Below, one piece after another: positions 7,120 to 47,357 of a DNA stretch of 64,000 nucleotides (position 1 is its first letter; the number at the start of each line of letters is the position of its first letter). Under the pieces are notes generated by a model that did not search any database, was not told where the DNA came from, and saw nothing but the letters and a program-made list of their open reading frames with translations. The translations under genes were made by a program, and so were the position numbers. The DNA comes from Mobula birostris (lineage: Eukaryota): contig NC_092386.1 of the NCBI RefSeq assembly GCF_030028105.1, positions 14,687,258 to 14,751,257 of the forward strand, in the 5' to 3' direction.

Positions 7120-7710
7120 CTGGAGGCCTCGCGGAGCCGCAACCCAGACACCCCCGCACGTCCACCGGCCTGAACTGCTGTCCCCGTTCCGCCCCACCTG
7201 CCCAGGGCTCCCGCCTCCGACCGACCACTCCACCTGTTACCCTCCCAGCCTCATCCGTCCCACGCCGTCACACCTATCCACCTCTGCTCCGCACCGCCGC
7301 ACTTGCCCAGGGCTCCCGTACCGTGCCCCCGCCGCTGACCACCCCACCTGTTCCTCACCTGCCCAGGGCTCCCGCAATGTCCACCCCACCTGTTTCCCAA
7401 CCCAGCCTCACCTGCCGGCCTGTTCGACAGCCGAGCGTGATGCAGGGAAGTTCCTCGGTGCCGAGAACTTTTCAGGCTGAGAGACGGAGCAAGGGGACAG
7501 ACCCTGAAGCGACTGGACGGTGTCAGGGTCCGGAAGAAACCGCCTCCACCTCACCACAGCCACTATCACCCGACCCTTACCTACTCGGAGCGGCGAAACT
7601 CCGGAATCTGCCCGCAAACTCCGATCACACGGAACACCCGCCCTTCCCTGATGTCACATCCACGGCAGCTCCTTACGTACACATTGTTCCCACGCACACC
7701 TCTTCCCGTC
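7120..7710 (-). promoter_or_regulatory. CpG-rich promoter and probable non-coding first exon of a minus-strand gene (CCDC125 by synteny, unverified)
   Basis: Local CpG enrichment. ETS-like CCGGAAG near 7530, GC box CCCGCCC at 7637-7643, CRE-like TGATGTCA at 7649-7656. Minus-strand donor TAG|GTAAGG at 7581/7580. No coding exon of this gene recognised in the window. Confidence 0.5.
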
Positions 7711-7759
7711 TACAGCTGTCACCACAGTGTCCTCCACAGGCCACTTCCCACAGCTAGCT

Positions 7760-8220
7760 GTTCCTACACTGAGTGTTCCTGTCCACAGCTCTTCCCATCT
7801 ACAGTTCTTCCCACAGTTCCTGCCCACAGCCCTTCCTACAGTGTTCCTGTCGACAACTCTTCCTACAGTGTTCCTGTCTACAGCCCTTCTACAGTGTTCC
7901 TGTCTACAGCCCTTCTACAGTGTTCCTGTCTACAGCTCTTCCTACAGTATTCCCGTCCACAGCCCTTCCTACAGTGTTCCTGTCTACAGCCATTCCTACA
8001 GTGTTCCCTTCTACAGCCCTTCCTACAATGTTCCTGTCTACAGCTCTTCCTACAGTGTTCCTGTCTATAGCTCTTCCTACAGTGTTCCTGTCCACAGCCA
8101 TTCCTACAGTGTTCCTGTCCACAGCCATTCCTACAGTGTTCCTGTCTACAGCCCTTTCCCATCTACAGCTCTTCCTACAGTGTTCCTGTCTACAGCTCCA
8201 GCTCTTCCTGTCTACAGCTC
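7760..8220. repeat. 27-bp minisatellite (TTCCTACAGTGTTCCTGTCTACAGCYM), about 16 units
   Basis: Direct tandem units visible. They produce the repetitive ORFs (SSSYSVPVY / TALPTVFLS) in the ORF track. Confidence 0.92.
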
Positions 8221-12241: not shown

Positions 12242-13759
12242 GACCTATAATGTGATCAGATCTTCATCCAAGTCCCAAACCCAATTAAATAAATAACACA
12301 AAAACATTACACTTGTTCATTTATTTATTGAGAAAAACGATCCAATATTACATGTATTTGTTGGAAAAAGTATGTGAACATTTGCTTTCGGTAACTGGTG
12401 TAACCCCCTTGTACAGCAATAACTTCAAACTTTTCTGGTAACTGTTGATCAATCCTGCACAGCAGCTTGGAGGAATTTTAGGCCATTCCTCTTTACAAAT
12501 CTGCTTTAACTCTAGGATATTGGTGAGCTTCCTTGTATGATCTACTTCCTTCAGGTCCTTCCACAACATTTCTACAGGATTAAGGTCAGGACATTGACTT
12601 GGCAATTCCAAAAGATGAAGTTACTTTTTTTAAAAGATCATTCTGTTGTTGATTTACCCTCGTCTTTCAGATCATTGTCTTGTTGCAGTATCCAACTTCT
12701 ATTAAGCTTCAGGTGATGGACTGTTCGCCTGACATTCTCCAGTAAAATGTCTTGATAAAATTTTGAATTCATCATTCCCTCAACGATTGCAAACTGTCCA
12801 GGCCCTGAGGCAGCCAATCAGCCCCAAACCATGATGCTCCTTCCACCGTGCTTCACAGTTGGGTTGAGGTTTTGGTGTCGGTGTGCAGTGCCCTTTTTCC
12901 TCCTAACAGCAGTGTGCCTTTCTGCCAGAAAGTCCACAGAACATTGTCTCAAAGGCATTGTGGAACATCCAGGTGGTCTTTTGCAAACTTGAGATGTGCT
13001 GCAATTTTTTTTTTTTTTTGGAGAGCAGTTGTTTCCTTCGTGGTGTACTTCCATGAACATCATTCTTGTTCAATGTTTTTTCTTATGGCAGACACATGAA
13101 CAGAAACTTTAGCAACTTTAGAGAGTTCTGCAGGTCTTTTGCTGTTACCCTTTGGTTCTTCTTCACCTCTTTCGGCACTGCATGCGGTGCCTTGGTGTGA
13201 TCTTTGCAGGTTGCCCACTCGGGGGGAGAGTAGCAACAGTACTGAGTTTGTTTTATTTGTAGACAATTTCTCTGACTGCGGACTGACGAACACTCAGGTC
13301 TTTAGAAATGCTTTTGTAGCCTTTTCCAGCTTGATGCATCTCTACAGTTCTTCTTTTAAGGTCCTCTGAAAGCTGTTTTGATTGAGGCATGGTGCAGATA
13401 AACAGATTTATATTGAGAAGAGCAGGCTCTGTCAGTAACCTGACTTTGTGTGTCTTTTTCGTAGGGCAGGCACCTCTACAACCCACACCTCCAATCTCAT
13501 CTCATTGATTGCAACAACTGACTCCAAATAGCTTTTGTAGTAGGCATTACACCAGAGGTTCACATACTTTTTCCAACAAATATATGTAATATCGGATCAA
13601 TTTTCTCGATAAATGAACATGTACAATGTTGTTGTGATATTTATCTAATTGGGTTCTCTATCTAGTTTTAGGACTTGCATGAAGATCTGATCACACCTTA
13701 GGTCATATTTATGTAGAAATAGAGAAAATTCTACAGGGTTCACAAACTTTCTAGCACTG
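12242..13759 (-). mobile_element. Tc1-family (IR/DR type) DNA transposon, degenerate, one TIR truncated
   Basis: Fragments MPQSKQLSEDLKRRTVEMHQAGKGYKSISKDL, PTVKHGGRSIMVWG, QQDND and SQCPDLNPVEMLW. TIR ends ...CACAAACTTTCTAGCACTG followed by TA. Same family as 55198-56825. Confidence 0.92.
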
Positions 13760-13817
13760 TAAATAGTAGTGCTCGAGGAGACATCATAATGTGTCGTGCC
13801 ACCAAAGAGACACCTAT

Positions 13818-17420: not shown

Positions 17421-19585
17421 AGAAACATAGAAAGCCTACAGCACAATACAGGCTCTTCGGCCCACAAAGCTGTGTCGAACATATCCTGACCTTAAAAATT
17501 ACCTAGTATTACCCATAGCCCTCTATTTTCCTGAGCTCCATATACCTGTCTAGGAGTCTCTTAAAAGACCCTATCACATCCGCCTCCACCACCGTCACCG
17601 GCAGCCCATTCCACGCACTCACCACTCTCTGCGTAAAAAAACTTACCACTGATATCTCCTCTGTACCTACTTCCAAGCACCTTAAAAGTGTGCCCTCTAC
17701 TGTTAGCCATTTCAGCCCTAGGAAAAAGCCTCTGACTATCCACACGATCAATGCCTCTCACCATCGTATACACCTCTATCAGGTCACTTCTCATCCTCTG
17801 TCGCTCCAAGGAAAAAAGGTCGAGTTCACTCAAACTATGCTCATAAGGCATGCTCTCCAATCCAGGCAACATCCTTGTAAGTCTCCTCTGTACCCTTTCT
17901 ATGGTTTCCACATCCTTCCTATAGTGAGGTGACCTGAACTGAGCACAGTACTCCAAGTGGGGTCTGACCAGGGTCCTATATAGCTGCAACATTACCTCTC
18001 GGCTCCTAAACTCACTTCCATGAAGGCCAATGCACCATATGCCTTCTTAACCAGAGAGTCAACCTGTGCAGCAGCTTTGAGTGTCCTATGGACTCGGACC
18101 CCAAGATCCCTCTGATCCTCCACACTGCCAAGAGTCTTATCATTAATACTATATTCTGTCATCATATTTGACCTATCAAAATTAACCACTTCACACTTAT
18201 CTGGGTTGAACTCCATCTGCCATTTCTCAGCCCAGTTTTGCATGCTATCAATGTCCCGCTATAACCTCTGACAGCCCTCCACACTATCCACAACACCTCC
18301 AACCTTTGTGTCATCAGCAAATTTACTAACCCATCCCTCCACTTCCTCATCCAGGTCATTTGTAAAAATCACGAAGAGTAGGGGTCCCAGAACAGATCCC
18401 TGGGGCACACCACAGGTGACTGACCTCCATGCAGAATATGACCCATCTACAATCACTCTTTGCCTTCTGTGGGCAAGCCAGTTCTGGATCCACAAAGCAA
18501 TTTCCCCTTGGATCCCATGCCTCCTTACTTTCTCAATAAGCCTTGCATTGGGTAGCTTGTCAACTGCCTTGCTGAAATCCATATACACTACATCTACTGC
18601 TCTACCATCATCAATGTGTCTAGTCACATCCTCAAAAAATTCAATCAGGCTTGTAAGGCACGACCTGCTTTTCACAAAGCCATGCTGACTATTCCTATTC
18701 ATATTATGCCTCTCCAAATGTTCATAATTCCTGCCTCTCAGGATCTTCTCCATCAACTTACCAACCACTGAAGTAAGACTCACCGGTCTATAATTTCCTG
18801 GGGTATCTCTACTCCCTTTCTTGAATAATGGAACAACATCCGCAATACTCCAATCCTCCGGAACCTCTCCCATCCCCATTGATGGTGGAAAGATCAACGC
18901 TGGAGGATCCGCAATCTCCTCCCTCACCTCCCACAGTAGCCTGGGTTACATCTCGACCAGTCCCAGTGACTTATCCAACTTGATGCTTTCCAAAAGCGCC
19001 TGCACATCCTCTTTCATAATATCTACATGCTCAAGCTTTTCAGTCCACTGTAAATCATCCCTATAATCGCCAAGATCCTTTTCTGTAGTGAATACTGAAG
19101 CAAAGTACTCATTAAGTACGTCTGCTATCTCCTCCGGTTCCATACACACTTTTCCACTGTCACACTTGATTGGTCCTATTCTCTCACGTCCTCTCCTCTT
19201 GCTCTTCACATACTTGCAGAATGCCTTGGAGTTTTCCTTAATCCTGTCCGCCAAGGCCTTCTCATGGCCCCTTCTGGCTCTCCTAATTTCTTTCTTGAGC
19301 TCCTTCCTGCTAGCCTTATAATCTTCTAGCTCTCGATCATTACCTTGCGTTTTGAACCTTTCATAAGCTCTTCTTTTCTTCTTGACTAGATTTACAACAG
19401 CCTTTGTACACCATGGTTCCTGTACCCTACCATCCTTTCCCTGTCTCATTGGAATGTACCTATGCAGAACTCTACACAAATATCCCCTGAACCTTTGCCA
19501 CATTTCTTCTGTACTTTTCCCTGAGAAAAGTACGGAATATCTGTTTCCAATTTATGCTTCCAAGTTCCTGCCTGATAGCCTCAAG
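17421..19585 (-). mobile_element. CR1 LINE, about 2.1-kb 3' part, in AK6 intron 3; frameshifted
   Basis: ORFs 18946-19503, 18259-18927 (NYRPVSLTS, GVPQGSVLGPLLF, KFADDTK), 17992-18243 and 17561-17992 (LVRPHLEYC). Confidence 0.93.
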
Positions 19586-19694
19586 TTCCTTGATTTAAGC
19601 TGACATTTGGGATTGAACAAATCAACACAAAGTAAATGGGCAGATGTTTGAAATGCATTTTGGATGATAGTAAGTTTTCTACTGCAATACTCAC

Positions 19695-21247: not shown

Positions 21248-21457
<210 letters not shown>

Positions 21458-22939
21458 TTACAGCATCCCTGTGGGAATGCTCCCCACCGACCTCCCAGAG
21501 TGTAGTGTCACAACGCACAACATCAATGCTTTCTCCCTCCCACGAGGATTTACAGTTCCACACGATTGTACCATTCTTTTCATGGTGGTTCAAAATCACA
21601 GACTTCATGATAGATTCCGGTATCTTCCCCCACTATCTCATTGAGCTGACAGGTTTTTAATTTCCAGTTTCTTTTGTGTGTGTGTCTCTCTCTCTCTCCT
21701 TTGTGGTTACATTTGGGACCCTTCAATGTACAGGAAGCATTGCAGCATTTTTTTTTAAACTTTGGCAGATAAAAAGCAAATAATTTACCATCTCTGAAGT
21801 CACCAGTATCAAATGTCATTAGATCCTTGAAATTAATCAATTTTCAAGTTTGCTAACTTCCATTACAATGTTTTTAAAATTAATGCTGGCTTTATTTTAC
21901 TTCCCCATTTCCTTCAGCCTTCACTACTGCTGGGAGTTTTGTTTTTGTATTTTCCCTGTATAATGCAATGTAACCTGCATGCACCACTTGCACTGGCAGC
22001 TCGTTCCACTCTCACAACCCTCTGAGTGAAGAAGTTTCCGCTTGTGTTCCCCTTAAACGTTTCACCTTTCACCCTTAACCCATTACGTCTCGTTGTAGTC
22101 CCACCCAACCTCAGTGGAAAAACCTCATTTACCCTGTCTATACCCTTCATAATTTTTTTTAACCTCCTTCAAATCTCCTCTCAATCTTCTGCGATCTAAG
22201 AAATAAAATTCTGACCTATTCAATAATGCAACAGAACAACACACACAAATGCTGGAGGGATTCAGCAGATCAGGCAGCAAATATGGAGGGGAATAAACAG
22301 TTAACGTTTTGGACTGAGACCCTTCATCATGGATGGGATGGAAGGGGGAAGAAGCCAGAAGCCAATGTAACAGAAAGAGCTTTCTGAAGTTATAGCTAGT
22401 AGAGTAGAGAAAACATTGCATGTAGCTTCTCTCAGTTGTCAGATGTTGTAGCACCCTTAGGAACCTTAACAATACTAGACAAAAGTAGCATAAAAAGTAA
22501 ATCCTCACTGGGAATATATGCTGTCCCCCACTCATATGCATTTGCCACCACTCCTCAATCCACTGACTCCTCCAGCATCTTCAGCAACAAGCAGATTTTT
22601 GTGTCTCCACCAGCATCTTGATTTTTGCCCCTAAGAAAACTCACCCCATGCACAAGCAACAGTTAAAGTAAACTAGCTTGCCCTCCTTTACCCTACCCAG
22701 ACAACCCATCGTACACTCTCCCGGCTGTCCCCACACAAACAGCTCAACCACCACTCCCTACCCTTACCACAATCTCACCCCAATCCAACCCCTCCCCACA
22801 CATCTTTCAGAAAGATATTTGGCGGTCTCTCTATGGTTACTCACGATTCCTCTCCCTCCTTCCCCGATACATCCTACTCCCGCACAATGAGGACATTTGG
22901 CCATCTCTATGTGATAAGACACCACACACATACACGCCT

Positions 22940-25900
22940 CATACATATAAACTCCTGACCCCATACAGATCCCCACCCTCCACCTGAGAGAAGGATATTC
23001 GGCCATCTCTCCATGCTGACAGACACCATACACATAAGCCCCCGGCCCCCATACTCAGACCCACACCCCTCACCTGTGAGCAGGACATTCGGCATCTCTC
23101 CATAGTGACAGACACCATACACATAAACCCCCGGCCCCCATACTCAAACCCACACCCCTCACCTGTGAGGAGGATATTCGGCCGTTTCCCCATGGTGACA
23201 GACACCACACACACATAAACCCCTGGCCCCCATACTCAGACCCACACCCCTCACCTGTGAGCAGGACATTCGGCATCTCTCCATGCTGACAGACACCACA
23301 CACATAAACCCCTGGCCCCCATACTCAAACCCACACCCCTCACCTGTGAGGAGGATATTCGGCCGTTTCCCCATGGTGACAGACACCACACACACACATA
23401 AGCCCCCGGCCCCCATACTCAGACCCACACCCCTCACCTGTGAGCAGGACATTCGGCATCTCTCCATGCTGACAGACACCACACACATAAACCCCTGGCC
23501 CCCATACTCAGACCCACACTCCCCACCCGTGAGAAGGATATTCGACCGTCTCTCTATGGTGACAGACACCACACACATAAACCCCTGGCCCCCATACTCA
23601 AACCCACACCCCTCACCTGTGAGGAGATAAGATCGATTCTCCATGGTGACAGGCACCACACACACATAAACCCCTGGCCCCCATACTCAGACCCACACCC
23701 CTCACCTGTGAGGAGATAAGATCGATTCTCCATGGTGACAGACACCACACACACATAAACCCCTGGCCCCCATACTCAAACCCACACCCCTCACCTGTGA
23801 GGAGATAAGATCGATTCTCCATGGTGACAGGCACCACACACACATACACCCCCGGCCCCCATACTCAGACCCACACCCCTCACCTGTGAGGAGATAAGAT
23901 CAATTCTCCATGGTGACAGGCACCATACACACATAAACCCCTGACCCCCATACTCAGACCCACACCCCTCACCTGTGAGGAGATAAGATCGATTCTCCAT
24001 GGTGACAGGCACCACACACACATAAACCCCTGGCCCCCATACTCAGACCCACACCCCTCACCTGTGAGGAGATAAGATCGATTCTCCATGGTGACAGGCA
24101 CCACACACACATAAACCCCCGGCCCCCATCCTCAGACCCACACCCCTCACCTGTGAGGAGATAAGATCGATTCTCCATGGTGACAGGCACCACACACACA
24201 TAAACCCCCGGCCCCCATCCTCAGACCCACACCCCTCACCTGTGAGGAGATAAGATCGATTCTCCATGGTGACAGGCACCACACACACATAAACCCCCGG
24301 CCCCCATCCTCAGACCCACACCCCTCACCTGTGAGGAGATAAGATCGATTCTCCATGGTGACAGGCACCACACACACATAAACCCCCGGCCCCCATACTC
24401 AGACCCACACCCCTCACCTGTGAGGAGATAAGATCGATTCTCCATGGTGACAGGCACCACACACACATAAACCCCCGGCCCCCATACTCAGACCCACACC
24501 CCTCACCTGTGAGGAGATAAGATCGATTCTCCATGGTGACAGGCACCATACACACATAAACCCCCGGCCCCCGTACTCAGACCCACAGCCCTCACCTGTG
24601 AGGAGATAAGATCGATTCTCCATGCTGACAGGCACCACACACACATAAACCCCCGGCCCCCGTACTCAGACCCACACCCCTCACCTGTGAGGAGATAAGA
24701 TCGATTCTCCATGGTGACAGGCTCCACACACACATAAACCCCCGGCCCCCGTACTCAGACCCACACCCCTCACCTGTGAGGAGATAAGATCGATTCTCCA
24801 TGGTGACAGGCACCACACACACATAAACCCCCGGCCCCCATACTCAGACCCACACCCCTCACCTGTGAGGAGATAAGATCGATTCTCCATGGTGACAGGC
24901 ACCACACACACATAAACCCCCGGCCCCCATACTCAGACCCACACCCCTCACCTGTGAGGAGATAAGATCGATTCTCCATGGTGACAGGCACCACACACAC
25001 ATAAACCCCCGGCCCCCATACTCAGACCCACACCCCTCACCTGTGAGGAGATAAGATCGATTCTCCATGGTGACAGGCACCACACACACATAAACCCCCG
25101 GCCCCCATACTCAGACCCACACCCCTCACCTGTGAGGAGATAAGATCGATTCTCCATGCTGACAGGCACCACACACACATAAACCCCCGGCCCCCATACT
25201 CAGACCCACACCCCTCACCTGTGAGGAGATAAGATCGATTCTCCATGCTGACAGGCACCACACACACATAAACCCCCGGCCCCCATACTCAGACCCACAC
25301 CCCTCACCTGTGAGGAGATAAGATCGATTCTCCATGCTGACAGGCACCACACACACATAAACCCCCGGCCCCCATACTCAGACCCACACCCCTCACCTGT
25401 GAGGAGATAAGATCGATTCTCCATGCTGACAGGCACCACACACACATAAACCCCCGGCCCCCATACTCAGACCCACACCCCTCACCTGTGAGGAGATAAG
25501 ATCGATTCTCCATGCTGACAGGCACCACACACACATAAACCCCCGGCCCCCATACTCAGACCCACACCCCTCACCTGTGAGGAGATAAGATCGATTCTCC
25601 ATGGTGACAGGCACCACACACACATAAACCCCCGGCCCCCATACTCAGACCCACACCCCTCACCTGTGAGGAGATAAGATCGATTCTCCATGGTGACAGG
25701 CACCACACACACATAAACCCCCGGCCCCCATACTCAGACCCACACCCCTCACCTGTGAGGAGATAAGATCGATTCCCCATGGTGACAGGCACCACACACA
25801 CATAAACCCCCGGCCCCCATACTCAGACCCACACCCCTCACCTGTGAGGAGATAAGATCGATTCTCCATGGTGACAGGCACCACACACACATAAACCCCC

Positions 25901-26682
25901 GGCCCCCATACTCAGACCCACACCCCTCACCCGTGAGGAGATAAGATCAATTCTCCATGGTGACAGGCACCACACACACATAAACCCCCGGCCCCCATAC
26001 TCAGACCCACACCCCTCACCCGTGAGGAGATAAGATCGATTCTCCATGGTGACAGGCACCACACACACATAAACCCCCGGCCCCCATACTCAGACCCACA
26101 CCCCTCACCTGTGAGGAGATAAGATCGATTCTCCATGGTGACAGGCACCACACACACATAAACCCCCGGCCCCCATACTCAGACCCACACCCCTCACCTG
26201 TGAGGAGATAAGATCGATTCTCCATGGTGACAGGCACCACACACACATAAACCCCCGGCCCCCATACTCAGACCCACACCCCTCACCTGTGAGGAGATAA
26301 GATCGATTCTCCATGGTGACAGGCACCACACACACATAAACCCCCGGCCCCCATACTCAGACCCACACCCCTCACCTGTGAGGAGATAAGATCGATTCTC
26401 CATGGTGACAGACACCACACACATAAACCCCCGGCCCCCATACTCAGACCCACACCCCTCACCTGTGAGGAGATAAGATCGATTCTCCATGGTGACAGGC
26501 ACCACACACACATAAACCCCCGGCCCCCGTACTCAGACCCACACCCCTCACCTGTGAGGAGATAAGATCGATTCTCCATGGTGACAGGCACCACACACAC
26601 ATAAACCCCCGGCCCCCATACTCAGACCCACACCCCTCACCTGTGAGGAGGATATTCGGCCGTCTCTCCATGGTGACAGACA
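22940..26682 (-). repeat. 89-bp tandem array (about 42 units) derived from AK6 exon 1 plus the start of intron 1
   Basis: Minus-strand consensus GTGAGGGGTGTGGGTCTGAGTATGGGGGCCGGGGGTTTATGTGTGTGTGGTGCCTGTCACCATGGAGAATCGATCTTATCTCCTCACAG. ORF starts recur every 89 nt. The promoter-proximal unit contains the true exon. Confidence 0.97.
26641..26671 (-). CDS. AK6: AK6 coding exon 1: MERRPNILLT(G)
   Basis: GTCACC-ATGGAGAGACGGCCGAATATCCTCCTCACAG|GTGAG. Phase 1 joins exon 2 to give [14 protein letters not shown], as in human [17 protein letters not shown]. Total CDS is 519 nt (172 aa). Confidence 0.93.
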
Positions 26683-26850
26683 CGAGCTCCTACCCGTGGG
26701 GTCTTTCGCTCGACTTGAGCCACCTCCCTTTGCGTCACGGCTCGTCCTGCTCACTGCCGAAATGATCAGAAACATTTCACGCACAAACAGACCACTCCCA
26801 ATGATTCAAAGTTGATTCTGTAGGAAACAGTGGCTCTCCTGGTACCGTCG
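26683..26850. promoter_or_regulatory. Bidirectional AK6/RAD17 promoter
   Basis: Short CpG-containing unique segment between the AK6 ATG and RAD17 exon 1. CRE-like TGCGTCA near 26731, CCAAT at 26798-26802, adjacent CHR-like TTCAAA (TTTGAA on minus) at 26805-26810. Confidence 0.7.
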
Positions 26851-26977
26851 CTGCATCAAGGAACACAATGGGCAAAATCCTGGACAACTAAAATACGGTT
26901 GAGAGCTGAGACTGGAGAAAGGGAGGACCTCTTGGCGAGCTGGTGTTTGTTAAAAAATCGGAGTGAGAAGAGAATTG
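26830..26977 (+). other. RAD17: Probable RAD17 non-coding exon 1 (start approximate)
   Basis: Strong donor TTG|GTGAGT at 26977/26978, followed by GT-rich intron-like sequence. TSS not determinable. Confidence 0.55.
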
Positions 26978-28919
26978 GTGAGTGTGAAGTGTGTGTAATG
27001 TGGAGTGTTATGTGTCTCCTGGGGTGTGTAACGTGTAATGTTTGTATTAGGCTGTGTAATGGGCTAGCTGGGGTGTCCGGGGGCTGGGCTGTCATGTATC
27101 CCGGTACATAATAGTGTGCTTTCAGTCAGCTGGAGAGAGTTTTGCTCTGTTCTGCGAACCTGAACACTCAGACACTCGTCCCATTTCCATCTTCCACCTT
27201 CACTGCTTCTCTGCCTCATTTCAATTCGAGTGAAATCAGACCCTCTACGTCTGTGCTCTCACTGCCACTCCCTCTGCTCCTTTCCTCTGCCATATAATTT
27301 GATTTCTATTTCACTCATTTCTGCCGAAAGCTCCTTGACCTGAGACATAATTTGTTTTTATTGTGTTCACTGAAGCAGGAGAGCCCTGTATATATGTAGC
27401 TTTTTTCCATTTTTATTGTAGTTCTCTGTGTCAGAAGTGATGGTAATAAACTATTTTCCTTTTTAAATCATACAGAATTAATAATCTTCATAACAAAATT
27501 GTGAAACTATTTAAATTATGTGTACAAATTTTTCTTACTGTGGCTTGCCTGTGTCCAGCTATTTAATAGCTGACTAAATTATTTGATTGCAGTTTACAAT
27601 TTCCTACACTTAGAAAGTAGCTTGCGTAGTGCTACATTGTTGTATCCCATTTGACAATTTTAGTTAATCATTGATTTGTTGCAAATTACATAATGTCCTT
27701 GATTTTCTTTCTGGATTCTCTTTGTACCTGATGGATGGAGGACTGTGAACATCTGTGGTAGTTTCTCACAGCAAACAAATTGTATGAGGAAAAAGATTGT
27801 ATGGATTTTAATGAAGTTGATGAATATGAACCATTCAAGGAATTAAAGATACTCAAAAACGGTTCTTTCTTCAGTCCCCTCCTGCTTTTGGCTACAACCA
27901 TGGACATTATTTACATGTTGTCTGTTATTTTTAATTATATAATTTAAGACTAGTAACTTGGTAGGGGTTGTTTGATACAACTGAAAATAAACTTTCTGTA
28001 AAGCACTTTCAACCATTGTGTCAGTGTGCAACTGGGTATAACCTGACCACCAGTAAGTTCATGATGTCAATATCTTTTCTGAGCTGAATAGTTATTCCTG
28101 GTGAACCAAGTAGAAGATTTACAACTATATTTTGGGAATGTAGTTTCTGCAACAGGCCTCAGTTGTTGTATCTTTAAAAACCACACAGTGCAATTTTGCA
28201 CTTGAATGAACATTGATTGCTCTTGGTAATTTTTTTTCTCTCTTTTTCTTTTTCTTTTCCCCCTTCCCTCTTCTTTCATTTCCCACTTGGCCTCTTACCT
28301 CTTTTCCTCATCTGCCTATCACCTCCCGCTGGTGGCCCTTCTTCCCTTTCTCCCATGGTCCACTCTCTTCTCTGATCAGATTCCTTCCTCTCCAACCCTT
28401 TACCTTTCCCGCCCACCTGGCCTCACCTATCACCTTCTAGCTTGTCCTCCTTCCCCTTCCCCCTTGCTTTTATTTGGTCATCTTCCCCCTTACTTTTCAG
28501 TACTGATGACCAGAAATGGCAACTGTTTAAGTTTAAAGTTCAAAGTATATTTATTCAAAGTATGCATACTATATACAACCTTGAGACTCGTCACCTTACG
28601 GACAGCCACAAAACAAAGAAACCCAATAGAACCCATCTTTTAAAAAAAGACCATTGAACATCCAATGTGCAGAAAAACAACAAGTCACGCAAACTATAAA
28701 AGTAAGCAAGTAGTATTTAGAGCTGAAGTTCACGAAAGTGACTCCACAGCCACAGCTGATTTAGAAGCCTGTCAGTTGCACTCTACGGCCATAGTTCAGC
28801 ACAGAGATGAGTATATCAGCGGAGCAGAGAGCTGAACCAGCCCATCCCTCGCCTCTGGCTCCAACACCCTGGCCTTTTAATTTTGGTCCACCACTTAAAT
28901 CATTCAAACCTCATTCACT

Positions 28920-29145
28920 TTGTCCTGACGAAGGGTCTCGGCCCAGAACGTCGACTGTACCTCTTCCTAGAGATGCTGCCTGGCCTGCTGCGTTCACCAG
29001 CAACTTTGATGTGTGTTGCTTGAATTTGCAGTATCTGCGGAATTCCTCGTGTTCACTTTCATGATTGCTATCTGACCTGCTGAGTTCCTCCAGCATTTTG
29101 TGCCTGTTACTCTGGATTTCCAGCTTCTGCGGAATCGCTTGTGCT
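28920..29145 (+). mobile_element. Penelope-like/SINE repeat with a degenerate hammerhead core, part of a larger remnant from about 28260
   Basis: CTGACGAAGGGTCTCGGCCCAGAACGTCGAC...GATGCTGCCTGGCCTGCTGCGTTCACCAGC, nearly identical to 45130-45250. Confidence 0.7.
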
Positions 29146-29649
29146 GATAGTTTTCTCGTTAGTGTGCAGTGCTCAATTCCTTAGGGAATAAGGAAAACAA
29201 TTGCTGATTCTGTGAAGGGGTGACAGAGGCATCAAGTGCTAACCACTTCAGCAGCATGTGTGGGGAGAACAGCGTGACTGATAAGCTTTTCTCAGAACTG
29301 GAAAAAAGTTTTAAAAGCACGCTGTTAATATACACAGATAGGAGTGGAGGTGAGAATGCCTGTGATGAGGTCAAAGGCTGAAGGTGATTGTGCAAGGCAA
29401 AGGTGGCGTTTAATGGTGTTAGAAAGAATACAAAGGTGATTTTCAGAAGAACTGTAGGTAAAGGTACTGCAGCTGAATATTACCTTTAATTGTTGAACCT
29501 AATGTTGAATTCTAGAGGATAGAATGGACAAAAAAAGTACCATATCAAAGCTACATTTTGCATATTCTTTCTTTTTCAAGCTGGAGTTTTCTTTATCACT
29601 TTATTGATGACAGTGTGGATCATAGCCCACATATGACTTCCGGCAGTCG

Positions 29650-29694
29650 ATGATGTCAAAATCTTCTCTCGGCAGAAAGGTTGTTTCTGCTAAG
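29650..29694 (+). CDS. RAD17: RAD17 first coding exon: MMSKSSLGRKVVSAK
   Basis: Resembles the human long-isoform start MSKTFLRPKVSSTK. Donor AAG|GTAAGA, phase 0 joining VTDW. Confidence 0.85.
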
Positions 29695-30441
29695 GTAAGA
29701 GTGTTTCACAACAGTACTTTGAGAATATAAGTTCTTTTGTACTATGTCATAGTTCTAGTACCTGCATTGAGAATACAAATTTATCTTTAGTTTCTGTGAT
29801 CAAACAACTTAACTTAAAGAATGGTATTAGCAAATCAGATCCTTGGGCTTGGGCTGTGTTTTATCCTGATATTAGCGGACAGAGGCTGTGCATGCTGGCC
29901 TCTGTCCGCTAATATCACGATAATAACGAACAGACTTCTAGTGTCGTGCTTGCTGGCATCTGTATGCTAATATTGGCATAATAACGAGCAGACCTCCAGT
30001 GCCACGCATGCTGGCATCTGTAAGTTAATATTACATGGCGTTGTGGGCATCACTTAGTGGCTGAAAAAAGCTCTCAGTTGGGAGCTTAATATCCAAGGAT
30101 ACAGAGTGTATCGAAAGGATAAGCAGGTATGCAGAGGGAGTGGGGTGGCTTTGTTGTTAAAAATGCAATGAAATCCTTACAAAGAGGTGACATAGGATTG
30201 GAAGATGTAAAATCCTTCTGGGGAGAGTTAAGAAACTGCAAGAGTGAAAAAGATGCTCATGAGAATCACATATGGGCCTCTGAACAGCAGCAAGGATGTG
30301 GGGGACAAATTACTAGGGAGATGGAAATAACAAGGATTTTGCAGATGCAGTAAATAAACCAAGTAATGACAATATTTCTTTTGAACACATACGGCAAAAT
30401 TAATTCCTTGATTAAAAGTATTGTGTAAATTGTTATTTCAG

Positions 30442-30723
30442 GTGACCGACTGGGTGAATCCATCATTTGATTGCATCAGCAAATCTCCCTTACCACAGGT
30501 TGCAGACAGAAAGCCATCTGCTTGTTCAAAGTCAAGTGGTGGGAATCAGAAAATTCTTTGGACAGGAAGTGACAAGAAATTTCATTCCAATACCTTAAAT
30601 GACACAAAGGATCAAAAAAGAATTAAAGTATCTCATGCGGAACAGACTTTAAGTCGCTGTAGGCAAAACTCCACCTCAAATTGCAGTAGTTCCTGGGTGG
30701 ATGAATATCGACCTCAAACACAG
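30442..30723 (+). CDS. RAD17: RAD17 exon: VTDWVNPSF...SSWVDEYRPQTQ
   Basis: 282 nt, TTTCAG| ... CAG|GTAGG. Carries the VTDWVxPSF and WVDxYxP motifs. Confidence 0.95.
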
Positions 30724-33700
30724 GTAGGAAAGTGATATATAATAAATTCCATAATTTATTATGGGCCATATCTATTAATTTTGGATTTTAACTCCTTGTC
30801 TATGTGAAGGATGTAAGTAATAAAGTCAATTCAAATTTCCATACTTTTATGATTTCAGTTTGGAGAAGCTTGTTTCTACAGTTATGCAAATAGGTCTGAT
30901 ATCCTGTTACGTCTTTATTTATTATGGGAGTGTGTTTCTTATTGACCTCCCCCTGTCTACCCAGCGTAAACTTCAGATTTTCCAAAGCAAATCCTAACTT
31001 GAGTCTCATCAGCCCTGCAATTTCGGACTTTCATTTACAGTATACTCCTGCTTTAGGGAGAGGCTGTGTTCCTAAACTAAACCATCCGTATGCAAATACT
31101 CCATAATGTAAACCCTTTTTTCCTACGTGTTATTTCTGGAGAAGCGATTCTACAAGCAGAATTATCTCACAAGTAATGCCCCAACCGTGGGTCCTCAACC
31201 TATAGGCACAGGAATTCTGATTATTTTGTAGGTAAGAGAGAAAAGATTGTTACTTGAGTTAACTAGAAACAGATGTTACATTGTTTGATAAATTATCAAT
31301 GAAAGGGATTCCCTTGTCAGTTGTCATCTCCAAGAGGCTTCTCCCTCCCTCTGGTGAGGGGAAATTTCGATAGATGGATAATTTATTGATCCCAAAGGAA
31401 ATTACAGTGTTACAGTCCAATTACAAGTGCACAGATACACAAATATTAGAGAAGTAAGAAAGAATAAAAAAAGTTACCTTAAAAATAAGATGTACAAGAT
31501 TTACAAGTCAAAGATTACAAGATTTAGAAGTTCACACATTTTTCCAAGTGGAAAAATTACTGTAATATTGTACAGTAATGAGTGCACGTTTGCACTGTCT
31601 AGACAAGAAGTGATGGTACCATTGACAGGATGTCTGAGACAGCAGGGTGTGGTAAACAGAGCTTAAACAGAGGCTAATAACAGTCTAACAACATCACTTC
31701 CCCGGCAAAAGGTTGACTCATTGTAGAGCCTAATGGCCAAGGGTAAGAATGATCTCACATTGCGCTCTTTGGAGCAGCACAGTTGTCTTAGTCTATTCCT
31801 GAATGTGTTCCTCTTAGAAAGTTAAGGAGAAGAGACATATTGATTGGGGAGATTTGCAGAATGCGTAATGATAACCAGAGTCTGTCAAGACAGACCAGAC
31901 TGTATCTTCAGGTCAAGTCAGAACATATAAAACTGAAGACTCATTCTTTGAATGTATTTGTAACATGGTCACATTAAGAGTGTTGCTTTCAGTTCCGATA
32001 CCTCCTTTACAGGAAGGATGTGGAGACTCTGAAGAGGGTGCAGAAGAGCTTCAGCAATATGTTACCTGGGTTAGAGTATTACACCACTCAACCAGCTGAT
32101 CTATCTTGCTCCTGTAAGCTGCCTCACTACCATCTGAGATTTTGCCAACAGCAGTGGTGTCGCTGACAAATTTTTAGATGGTATTTGAGCTGCGCTTGCC
32201 CACACAGTAATGAATGTAGAGCAGAGTAAAGTCGAAAGCTAGGAAGTCTAGAGCCACTCTCAAAGTAAGGGGTTAGCAATTCAGGGATGAGAGGAGAAGA
32301 TGTTTTTTTCATGTAAAAGGTAGAGAATCTTTGGACCTTTCCGCTCAAGGAGACAGGGACTTATTCACTAAGTATATGGAAGACAGAAATTGAAAATGTG
32401 AAGGGAATCGATGAATGTGGTTCAGTGTATGGAAGTGGCTTGAACTCTTTCAAATTCAAGTTTATTGTCATTCATCTGTATACTGTACATGAAGCAATGT
32501 TCCACTGGGACCAAGGTACAAAACACAATACATATATCACACACAGCACATAACATAATATTAACACAATAATAGTAACAGATTAAAAGTAAGTACTATG
32601 TAGATGTGCAAGTTGACATAAGTTCAAGTTTAAATTTAATTGACGTTCAACCATACCCATGAGCACAGCCAAACAAAACAGCATTCCTGCAGAGCCAAGG
32701 TGCAAAACACAGCATCACAGTAAACACAGCGCAAGGCACAGATAGCACATGTAATTATGATCGCAGAAAAACAGACAGCATCAAGTAATCCCACATTCGG
32801 TGGGTCACATCAAAGCTCTGCAGCTCCACTGACGTAAAATGGCAGAAGAAAATTAAACAGCCCTGGGGAGGAGACAACTCCTCATCATTGATAGGAGAGA
32901 GCAGCATGTAAATGCCAGAGACATGCCTGAAATATTTGCAATTCTCCTCAGCTGGAAGTAACAGATTGATGTAGTCCCTGCCGCTACATGTCTCTGGTAT
33001 TTACTGAATCCAGTTGATTCAGTGTGCATGATGTCACGAAATGACTGAGTGTACTCGGAATAGAAAATACTGTGGGACCACACCACATTGAGGTTATTGT
33101 CCTGAAGACGTGCTTTCCAATACCATAAGACAAGAAGACGTAAGGGCAGAATTAGGCTATTTGGCCCATCAAGTCTGCTGTATGTCAGCCATGCCCAGAT
33201 TTGTAATTTTTTACAAAAAATGGTGTAGGTACAATCAAGCCGACAACAACCTCTTCAGTCTACTCTCAATCAACAGCAAATGATGGAAGGAATCATAATG
33301 CCAGTATCAAGCAGCACTTAGCAATGAACCACTCACTAACGCTCAGGTTGGCTTTGGCCAGGACACTTAGCTCCCAGCTTCATTACAACCCTGGTCCAAA
33401 CACAGACAAAAGAGTTGACTTCCGGAGGTAAGGAGGGAGGGGGATTATTGCCCAGGATAGTAAGGCATTGTTAGATTGAATGTGGCCGTGGTTAAAACTA
33501 GTTAGGATGAATCATGCAGAAACTGTTCCTTAAGTTGAAGTAACACCTCACATTCAGAATTCTGGTGCTGTTTGTAAGATGTCAAGTCACCTTTAAACCC
33601 GGACTTAGCCGTAGAAATTGCCCAGGGCAGTGTCCTAAACCATTTTCAGCTTTTCACCTTGAATCTTTGTTTAATCATCTCAAACACTGTGTGCTTACAT

Positions 33701-45894: not shown

Positions 45895-46020
45895 GAAGTT
45901 TGTTCAGACGGCCAGATGTCCATTGGTGTTCATAATTTCTGACAGCTTCAGTGGAGACAGCAACCAGCGGTTACTCTTCCCTCACGACATCCAAAAGGAA
46001 CTAGGTATCTTCAACATTAG
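45895..46020 (+). CDS. RAD17: RAD17 exon: (R)KFVQTARCPLVFIISDSFSGDSNQRLLFPHDIQKELGIFNI(S); GC donor
   Basis: 126 nt, TTAG| ... TTAG|GCAAGT. Aligns to human RCPLIFIISDSLSGDNNQRLLFP...SNISFNP. Confidence 0.93.
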
Positions 46021-47357
46021 GCAAGTACCAGTTCACTGGTAACTCCGCACATTTGTTTGTGCTCCTTTGATTTTGTCTTTTATAAATATTCTTGAACTAA
46101 GTGATTTTTAAACAGTTAAATATATTTTGAATCTATTACAATTGTATTTCATTTGGAGTTTCAAAATGTACGGATTGTGTAAAAAAAATTTAAATTTTTA
46201 AACTTTGTATCTCTTTAGTGCTGAAATTTTGACAGTATTTTAAAACAGAAGTGATATTTCCGTGCTGTTCATGGGTGACAAATTCATTGCTCCATTTGTA
46301 CCATGAGCAGACTGAACTGGAGAGCGTTTCCCCCGAAATTTGCTTGTCTGTATAGTCCGCTGGTTCCTCAGAAACCATACAAGAGGCATCATTTTTACAT
46401 TTATTAATTAATTAAGGATAAATCCCATTACAAAGTCAGAGAACATTTTGATTGTTTACCCCTGTTTAGATAGTGGTGCACTTTTGAAAGCTGCCTTCCA
46501 AAAATTTATCCAGAAAGGTCATTGTCCACGTGTGGTCTTGACGCAGGTGTCATCAACAAGGAACAAGCATCTGACTCTGATTCTGTCTTCAACCTTGTCA
46601 GAGTATTTGTACTTAACACACAGGTCACTGCTTAAGGGGTTACAGGGGGAAAAAAACTTGAATTATCTGTAGCACTTTATTCTGTACTTTACTATTGTTT
46701 AGCTCTTGTACAACCTCAATGTACTGACAGAACTTTATACTCAGGACGAGGTTGTGGTGCTACTCCAGTCTGTGTGAATCAGATATTTACAATGCAGGTG
46801 GTGTGGCTTAATTAGAAAAAAATTCCATGTTTACATCCAACAAGTGACTTTGATATTCCATAACACTTAAAGGCCGTTGGCAAGCCGGATGTAGCATTAT
46901 TCAGCTGCACAACAATCCTAGGGAAGAAGCTGTTTTTCAGTCTAACTGTCTTGGCTAAAATGTCTCTGTATCTCCTACCAGAAAGCAGGAGATTGAACAG
47001 AGAGTGTCTGGGGCATGATGAAATTATCTATAGATGGCATGCAAAGTAAAGTAGGATGATGGATAATTAATTTGCCACTTGTTCCCTTCCCATACATACA
47101 TAAGCAATACCATGCCAAGAAAGACCACCTCACTTTGCAGAGATGAGAGAAGTTAGTCTCGACAGGTATCAGCCTTGGGGTTTGTATGTCCCTGTGCTTT
47201 ACCTGAATCTGATAAGAAGCAACAAGGAGACTTAAATGGTTTTTTTATTTTGTTACTTAATGACGTTTAATCATTTTACATGCTGAAAGCTAAATTGAAT
47301 TACAAATCAACTTGCTATGGTCTATTATTTAAACCATTCTTTTCCATCTTTTGGTAG

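Follow-up and report, generated by a model that had tools for sequence, protein, structure and literature searches.

Splice-junction minisatellites and related tandem arrays

Several human genes carry minisatellites whose first monomer spans an exon end, with the donor reiterated head to tail in the intron. The examples described by Borensztajn et al. 2006 (PMC1557585) are F7 IVS7, with 5-9 copies of a 37-bp unit, IFI6 (6-16), with 25 pseudo-donors, CBS IVS13, with 15-20, LMNB2, with 10-15 copies of 100 bp, and PDGF intron 4, with 16-18 copies of 81 bp. According to the same source, F7, LMNB2, and PDGF use only the authentic donor, while two downstream pseudo-donors are also in use in IFI6 and CBS. 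F7 minigenes pointed to 5'-to-3' scanning, and conflicting results with duplicated splice sites are noted there as well (PMC1557585).

We identified an array of the same arrangement at the first coding exon of AK6 in the window (the whole stretch of 64,000 nucleotides of Mobula birostris DNA analysed here). As in F7, its tandem units fall within 10-100 bp, the first of them lies over the exon/intron boundary, and the donor is repeated unchanged; in size the unit resembles those of LMNB2 and PDGF. The AK6 array differs from the human ones in that its unit contains the first coding exon as a whole, including the ATG and its Kozak context, in its 41 extra copies over 3.7 kb, in the divergence of the exon part of most copies from the real exon, and in that each junction is also acceptor-like. 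The kind is already known from the human junction minisatellites; what is new at AK6 is a unit that contains a whole start exon and is acceptor-like. A search of open-licence PMC and bioRxiv articles, with subscription journals outside its scope, found no literature on the AK6 locus or on a junction minisatellite with a whole start exon.

Variable first-exon clusters, such as those of protocadherin and UGT1A, resemble the AK6 array in that their tandem first exons precede constant exons common to all of them. Each first exon in such clusters has its own promoter, and the exons are large, conserved, and diverse, whereas the AK6 copies have neither promoter-like CpG density nor coding conservation.

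Dual-specific splice sites, which can act as acceptor and as donor, provide a third comparison. Duan et al. 2024 (PMC10809524) describe tandem dual-specific sites in human UBC and VCX3A and suggest that expansions are tolerated there since they are spliceable. In these genes as at AK6, AG/GT lies inside the tandem unit, any intron that could form comprises a whole number of units, and its removal restores the frame. The repeats of UBC encode protein, have a length divisible by 3, and are optional in the mRNA, whereas those of AK6, at 89 nt, all have to be removed and are dual-specific by prediction. The AK6 junctions also resemble the recursive and distal exonic recursive sites treated by Hoppe et al. 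2023 (PMC10156609) in having YAG/GT with an upstream pyrimidine tract and in regenerating a donor. As described in that source, known recursive sites are mostly single and supported by lariats, in contrast to the 38 predicted in tandem at AK6; repeats were filtered out in that study.

The AK6 gene and its shared upstream region

The initial annotation had named the gene AK6 and taken the promoter-proximal unit of the array (unit 1) as its real exon 1, and both assignments hold: unit 1 is the true AK6 exon 1. Five minus-strand exons with AG/GT borders (26671-26641, 21426-21334, 19753-19695, 16452-16307, and 15369-15180) splice to a protein of 172 aa with an orthologue-like N-terminus. Exon 1 has 31 nt, encodes MERRPNILLT-G, and is followed directly by the donor, CAG/GTGAGG. 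Exon 2 (93 nt) encodes the P-loop TPGVGKT and matches human AK6 chain 1rkb_A with an E-value of 4.3e-10; exons 3 (59 nt), 4 (146 nt), and 5 (the coding part up to the stop) complete the spliced model. The AAA_18 family has three matches above the cut-off in the genome, two of which are exons at this locus. The product is 89.5% identical to shark AK6 and agrees with a stingray protein (P0129) at 168/172 positions, with the same N-terminus; protein similarity thus points to a ray. It also agrees at 172/172 positions with a devil-ray protein (P0130), but this may be an annotation of the same locus and is not counted as independent, so P0129 was used instead. In mouse, knockout of AK6 is reported to be embryonic lethal (PMC4974663).

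Directly upstream of unit 1, at 26672-26836, lie the AK6 5' UTR and a likely bidirectional promoter shared with RAD17. The ratio of observed to expected CpG (CpG o/e) is 0.82 over 26672-26900, compared with 0.34 for the array and 0.31 for the window as a whole, and there is no ATG in 26672-26720. The RAD17 non-coding first exon (26837-26977, plus strand) is head to head with AK6 and is joined to 29581 over a GT..AG intron in all four sequencing runs; its 5' end is given as the reach of contig X1 (see below). A later RAD17 exon is 96% identical to devil-ray RAD17 (P0176). This arrangement suggests that the two genes share a promoter of less than 170 bp.

The four runs are represented by contig sets (X1-X4) from 26491-31000 only, which takes in units 1-2 and the upstream sequence, with exon 2 outside, and that they derive from RNA is a guess. 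X3 was flagged as probably DNA, yet all four sets carry the spliced RAD17 join, and the X1 contig agrees with the window at every position along 538 nt of RAD17 exon sequence. The bin 26642-26792 (unit-1 exon and UTR) is covered by contigs of two of the four runs, from two studies, at depths of 26.6 (X1) and 78.7 (X2). Depth in the next bin, 26491-26641, falls to 1.35 (X1) and 3.03 (X2) and is 0 in X3 and X4, in which unit 1 itself is also uncovered. A link between unit 1 and exon 2 was seen in none of the reads or contigs, SINE matches having taken up the list of loose ends, and the choice of donor discussed below is therefore one that we infer.

Two observations on these contigs are recorded for completeness and are not counted as evidence. 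The low depth in 26491-26641 fits a single X1 contig of depth ~68 over 26639-26700, which would stop two shared bases beyond the unit-1 donor; contigs show presence only, and X2 is ambiguous. The word shares reported for the runs (0.08, 0.05, 0.00, and 0.00) agree with those expected without array words (0.070, 0.044, and 0.006) and are equally weak.

Structure of the array

Tandem Repeats Finder (TRF) reports a minus-strand array at 23008-26650 with a period of 89, 40.9 copies, and 95% matches. Dissection by unit resolves 42 units of ~89 bp from 26671 to 22984, each with an ATG or ATA start and a donor, 34 of them homogenised, as the initial annotation had counted. Its statement that the variant is 3 nt shorter than the real exon (28 against 31 nt) likewise agrees with the unit lengths. 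The homogenised part, comprising the unit-1 spacer and units 2-35, occupies 23558-26640 on the minus strand and is built from a 28-nt pseudo-exon, MENRSYLLT-G, and a 61-nt spacer rich in G and GT; from GT to AG, each repeat forms an intron-like block of 89 nt. The exact exon is present in 30 of the 34 homogenised units. Among the others, units 9 and 32 have a TGA and unit 11 reads MGNR; the exon end is CGG rather than CAG in unit 8 and in unit 9. The motif ATCGAT occurs 32 times.

Units 36-42 (22984-23557, minus strand) are of older, diverged types, 31 nt or 30 nt long, which alternate over units 37-41. Units 37, 39, and 41 are the 30-nt, frameshifted type, units 38 and 40 encode MGKRPNILLT, and unit 36 starts with ATA. 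Beyond these is a degenerate tail on the same strand (22800-22983), where two relics of units that have lost ATG and donor lie near 22910 and 22834. The donor 9-mer CAGGTGAGG is present in 38 of the 42 units, and 37 of the 41 internal donors are the same as that of unit 1.

When the 4.0-Gb assembly was searched at the DNA level, the 42 matches obtained were all within the array, and the variant 20-mer gave 34, again all within the array, against 0 for the control. The array is thus real in the assembly and confined to one locus; it had 0 matches in metagenome contigs. Long minisatellites are no rarity in this region, since 264 kb surrounding the locus contain two arrays longer than 1 kb; of the two, only the AK6 array has AG/GTRAG.

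Turnover and origin of the copies

The array is polar: the old units at its 3' end have decayed and include five that alternate in type, while the young 28-nt variant fills the promoter-proximal 3 kb. The 32 full-length young units differ on average at 1.74 of 89 nt. Neighbouring units differ by 1.17 nt and other pairs by 1.78, a contrast for which none of 10000 shuffles gave as low a value, and the variants are clustered in local blocks along the array, such as those of units 13-17, 22-24, and 27-29. Of the 14 variant sites, two result from CpG transitions and coincide with the unit's two CpGs, both of which have decayed in some copies. The pattern of variants is that of ordinary minisatellite turnover and speaks against an artefact. 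An artefactual array, or an inflated copy number, is accordingly hard to credit: the array is known from one assembly, but unit-specific variants in local blocks, combined with a polar age gradient, indicate real turnover, and the array contains no Ns and lies in a contig of chromosome scale.

Each unit contains four G-runs on the non-template strand, which form a G-quadruplex motif with a G4Hunter score of 1.88, matched by 0.1% of the other 25-mers in the window. G-quadruplex motifs can destabilise minisatellites. Expansion may have proceeded by slippage or unequal exchange, aided by G-quadruplex and R-loop formation beside a busy bidirectional promoter.

Compared with unit 1, the young variant has five substitutions and three gapped bases in a 14-nt core and none in the spacer (p ~0.009 against the nearest old spacer). 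No source for the core was found elsewhere in the genome within one mismatch. An origin by micro-inversion was considered and set aside, the alignment to the reverse complement being no cleaner.

Coding capacity of the copies

The initial annotation had proposed that the copies are spare start exons, each in frame with exon 2, and that any internal transcription start would yield an in-frame N-terminal variant. Splicing to exon 2 at 21426 would give full-length AK6 from 35 of the 41 internal units; the other six are broken. That the 34 young copies keep the frame, however, goes back to a single founding event, for which the chance was 1 in 3. Among 105 orthologue N-termini, the residues before the P-loop are N in 105, I, V, or L in 105, and P in 102. 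These 105 were drawn from 175 proteins fetched, after removal of 38 without a P-loop start and 32 without Met 9-13 residues upstream or without the last three motif residues. In place of P, N, and I the dominant 28-nt copy has R, S, and Y, which are found in none of the 105 at those positions. Because P, N, and I are replaced in 34 copies and six of 41 are broken, the copies show no conserved coding capacity and no sign of coding constraint.

Internal initiation would place MENRSYLLT or MGKRPNILLT at the N-terminus of AK6 in the manner of variable first exons. In its favour are the frame of the 35 copies, the good context of their ATGs, and the retention of P-N-I-L-L-T in units 38 and 40; we nevertheless regard it as very unlikely. 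Apart from the loss of the invariant residues in the dominant copy, all 41 spacers contain an out-of-frame ATG. In 36 of the 41 this ATG is in a strong context (A at -3, G at +4), 38-40 nt upstream of the unit ATG, and opens an ORF of ~30 aa that overlaps it. Only transcripts starting within ~22 nt of the unit's own ATG avoid the out-of-frame ATGs, which contradicts the claim that any internal start would serve. The array also lacks promoter-like CpG density (o/e 0.34-0.40, against 0.82 at the promoter), an indirect measure with spacers of 61 nt. The strings MENRS, SYLLT, and MGKRPN are absent from the 175 proteins fetched, a set in which 90% clustering can hide variants.

Splicing of the array

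We favour, with reasonable confidence, the view that the array is a single-locus minisatellite derived from the AK6 exon 1/intron 1 junction, in which unit 1 supplies the start and the donor and the 41 extra copies are likely silent and removed with intron 1. Unit 1 alone matches the orthologue N-termini, and the promoter signature and the RAD17 first exon are immediately upstream of it. Transcription would start upstream of 26671, the first donor would win, as in human F7, and the array would leave with the 5.2-kb intron. G-runs and UG repeats can silence splice sites; these, together with a local hairpin over the junction, may mute the downstream copies. A leak to a later donor would lead to a premature stop and decay unless the transcript were re-spliced. 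The array is, in short, probably passive. It would then be a large natural case of first-donor selection, with one donor chosen out of 38 identical ones in an essential gene, and a good minigene substrate, with no new biology.

What such leakage would produce bears on a different proposal, in which a share of the transcripts that rises with copy number is spliced from a later donor or takes up an 89-nt unit as a cassette, meets a premature stop, and is degraded, with copy number setting AK6 dosage. The prediction in the initial annotation that the second and third donors would be out of frame, with read-through stopping in unit 3, proved correct. From the unit-1 ATG, donor 2 gives an ORF of 53 aa and donor 3 one of 80 aa, and donors 4-42 all end at 70 aa in unit 3, which makes the products of donors 2-42 presumptive candidates for nonsense-mediated decay. 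All 41 alternatives thus lead to ORFs of 53-80 aa, 37 of the internal donors do not differ from the real one, and IFI6 and CBS provide examples of downstream pseudo-donors in use; F7, LMNB2, and PDGF, on the other hand, use the authentic donor only, as far as the same account describes them (PMC1557585). Leakage would moreover be a cost and not a function unless selected. Copy number may tune AK6 through donor leakage, but a dosage function of this kind seems to us improbable. A somewhat better case, though still a doubtful one, can be made for the idea that each CAG/GTGAG may serve as both acceptor and donor, the array being removed in pieces and the use of a wrong donor being put right when donor 1 is spliced once more, to a unit-end AG. 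This would explain how 41 extra donors are tolerated in an essential gene and why a variant with a better acceptor has spread.

The anatomy of the unit is compatible with such correction. AG/GT is present at 38 of 41 internal junctions, three units having lost the AG. Re-phased at the donor, the unit runs GT...AG over 89 nt, with donor, G-runs, UG tract, a candidate branch A at -31 (placed by eye), pyrimidine tract, and CAG before the next GTGAG. With this AG/GT core and acceptor-like upstream sequence, the array has the structure seen in UBC, and its possible introns are whole units. In 38 of the 41 paths from an internal donor to exon 2, the retained GT..AG block (at least 89 nt) could be removed to restore the normal mRNA exactly. 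The young variant scores 6.63 bits as an acceptor in a small model, trained on only the 17 acceptors of AK6 and RAD17 and distinct from MaxEntScan; by this measure it exceeds 13 of the 17 real acceptors and is surpassed by four of them and by 0.17% of 1787 background AGs. It combines 13/17 pyrimidines with a zone of 20 nt that is free of AG. The score is 3.18 for unit 1 and 4.23 for the AK6 exon 2 acceptor, the leave-one-out median of real acceptors being 4.06, and nine real donors that end in AG reach at most 2.34. The variant's gain of 3.5 bits over unit 1, together with the cluster of changes in its core, is unexpected under drift, though one complex mutation could account for it. The acceptor-like appearance is partly due to the ILLT codons. 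Predicted folding also speaks against recursive use: through the same core changes the pyrimidine tract pairs with the G-run after the donor, at an opening cost of 13.3-13.7 kcal/mol in the variant against 8.0-12.1 in unit 1. The exon junction complex is also reported to repress re-splicing (PMC10156609, citing Blazquez 2018). The stronger proposition, that the 28-nt variant spread by turning each start-exon copy into a self-erasing 89-nt intron, giving a ladder of 38 dual-specific sites on which every splice path leads to normal mRNA, is more speculative still. Were it correct, the start codon of an essential gene would be the site of ongoing intron birth by tandem duplication and of ongoing correction of splice errors. 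If splicing here is recursive, the unit-specific SNP blocks would provide an unusually readable test of cost-free junction-repeat expansion through dual-specific sites, as proposed for UBC and VCX3A (PMC10809524), and of intron gain by tandem duplication.

Masking of the donor in a hairpin was also considered as the cause of the sweep of the variant and was rejected as not robust. With +/-30 nt, the predicted cost of opening the donor is 8.9 kcal/mol in the variant and 6.2 in unit 1, but with +/-58 nt the two values become 8.6 and 9.0, and the fold z-scores range from 0.72 to -1.09. Under the favoured passive reading, the values at +/-58 nt indicate that such masking is not specific to the copies, the donor of unit 1 being predicted to be as deeply buried as theirs.

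The AK6 and RAD17 gene pair

AK6 and RAD17 are arranged head to head, with less than 170 bp (window 26672-26836) separating the AK6 ATG from the non-coding first exon of RAD17. Because the minisatellite array at the AK6 exon 1/intron 1 junction starts only 31 nt beyond the AK6 ATG, RAD17 transcription could also be open to influence from the array. Within RAD17, the best fit to the devil-ray RAD17 protein (P0176) places an intron at window 46020-46021 that apparently begins with GC instead of GT.

Other minisatellites and dispersed repeats

A 27-bp minisatellite (window 7798-8156; 13.4 copies, 88% matches) directly adjoins a CpG-rich stretch at 7300-7800, which has a CpG observed/expected ratio of 0.68 and a GC content of 0.61. 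The stretch is probably another promoter. Besides the AK6 array, a second long minisatellite, with a period of 33-34 and a length of about 1.4 kb, lies just right of the window (L016:3773-5202, on G000:C21); the donor motif is absent from it.

By eye, about 2 kb of AK6 intron 3 (window ~17450-19620) resembles a decayed CR1/L2-type LINE fragment, and a stretch downstream of AK6 (~12300-13800) resembles decayed Tc1/mariner-like transposase sequence. The SINE-like repeats at window 28300-28460 and 28910-29140 are highly abundant, with the depth of assembled sequencing-run contigs reaching up to 695,000.
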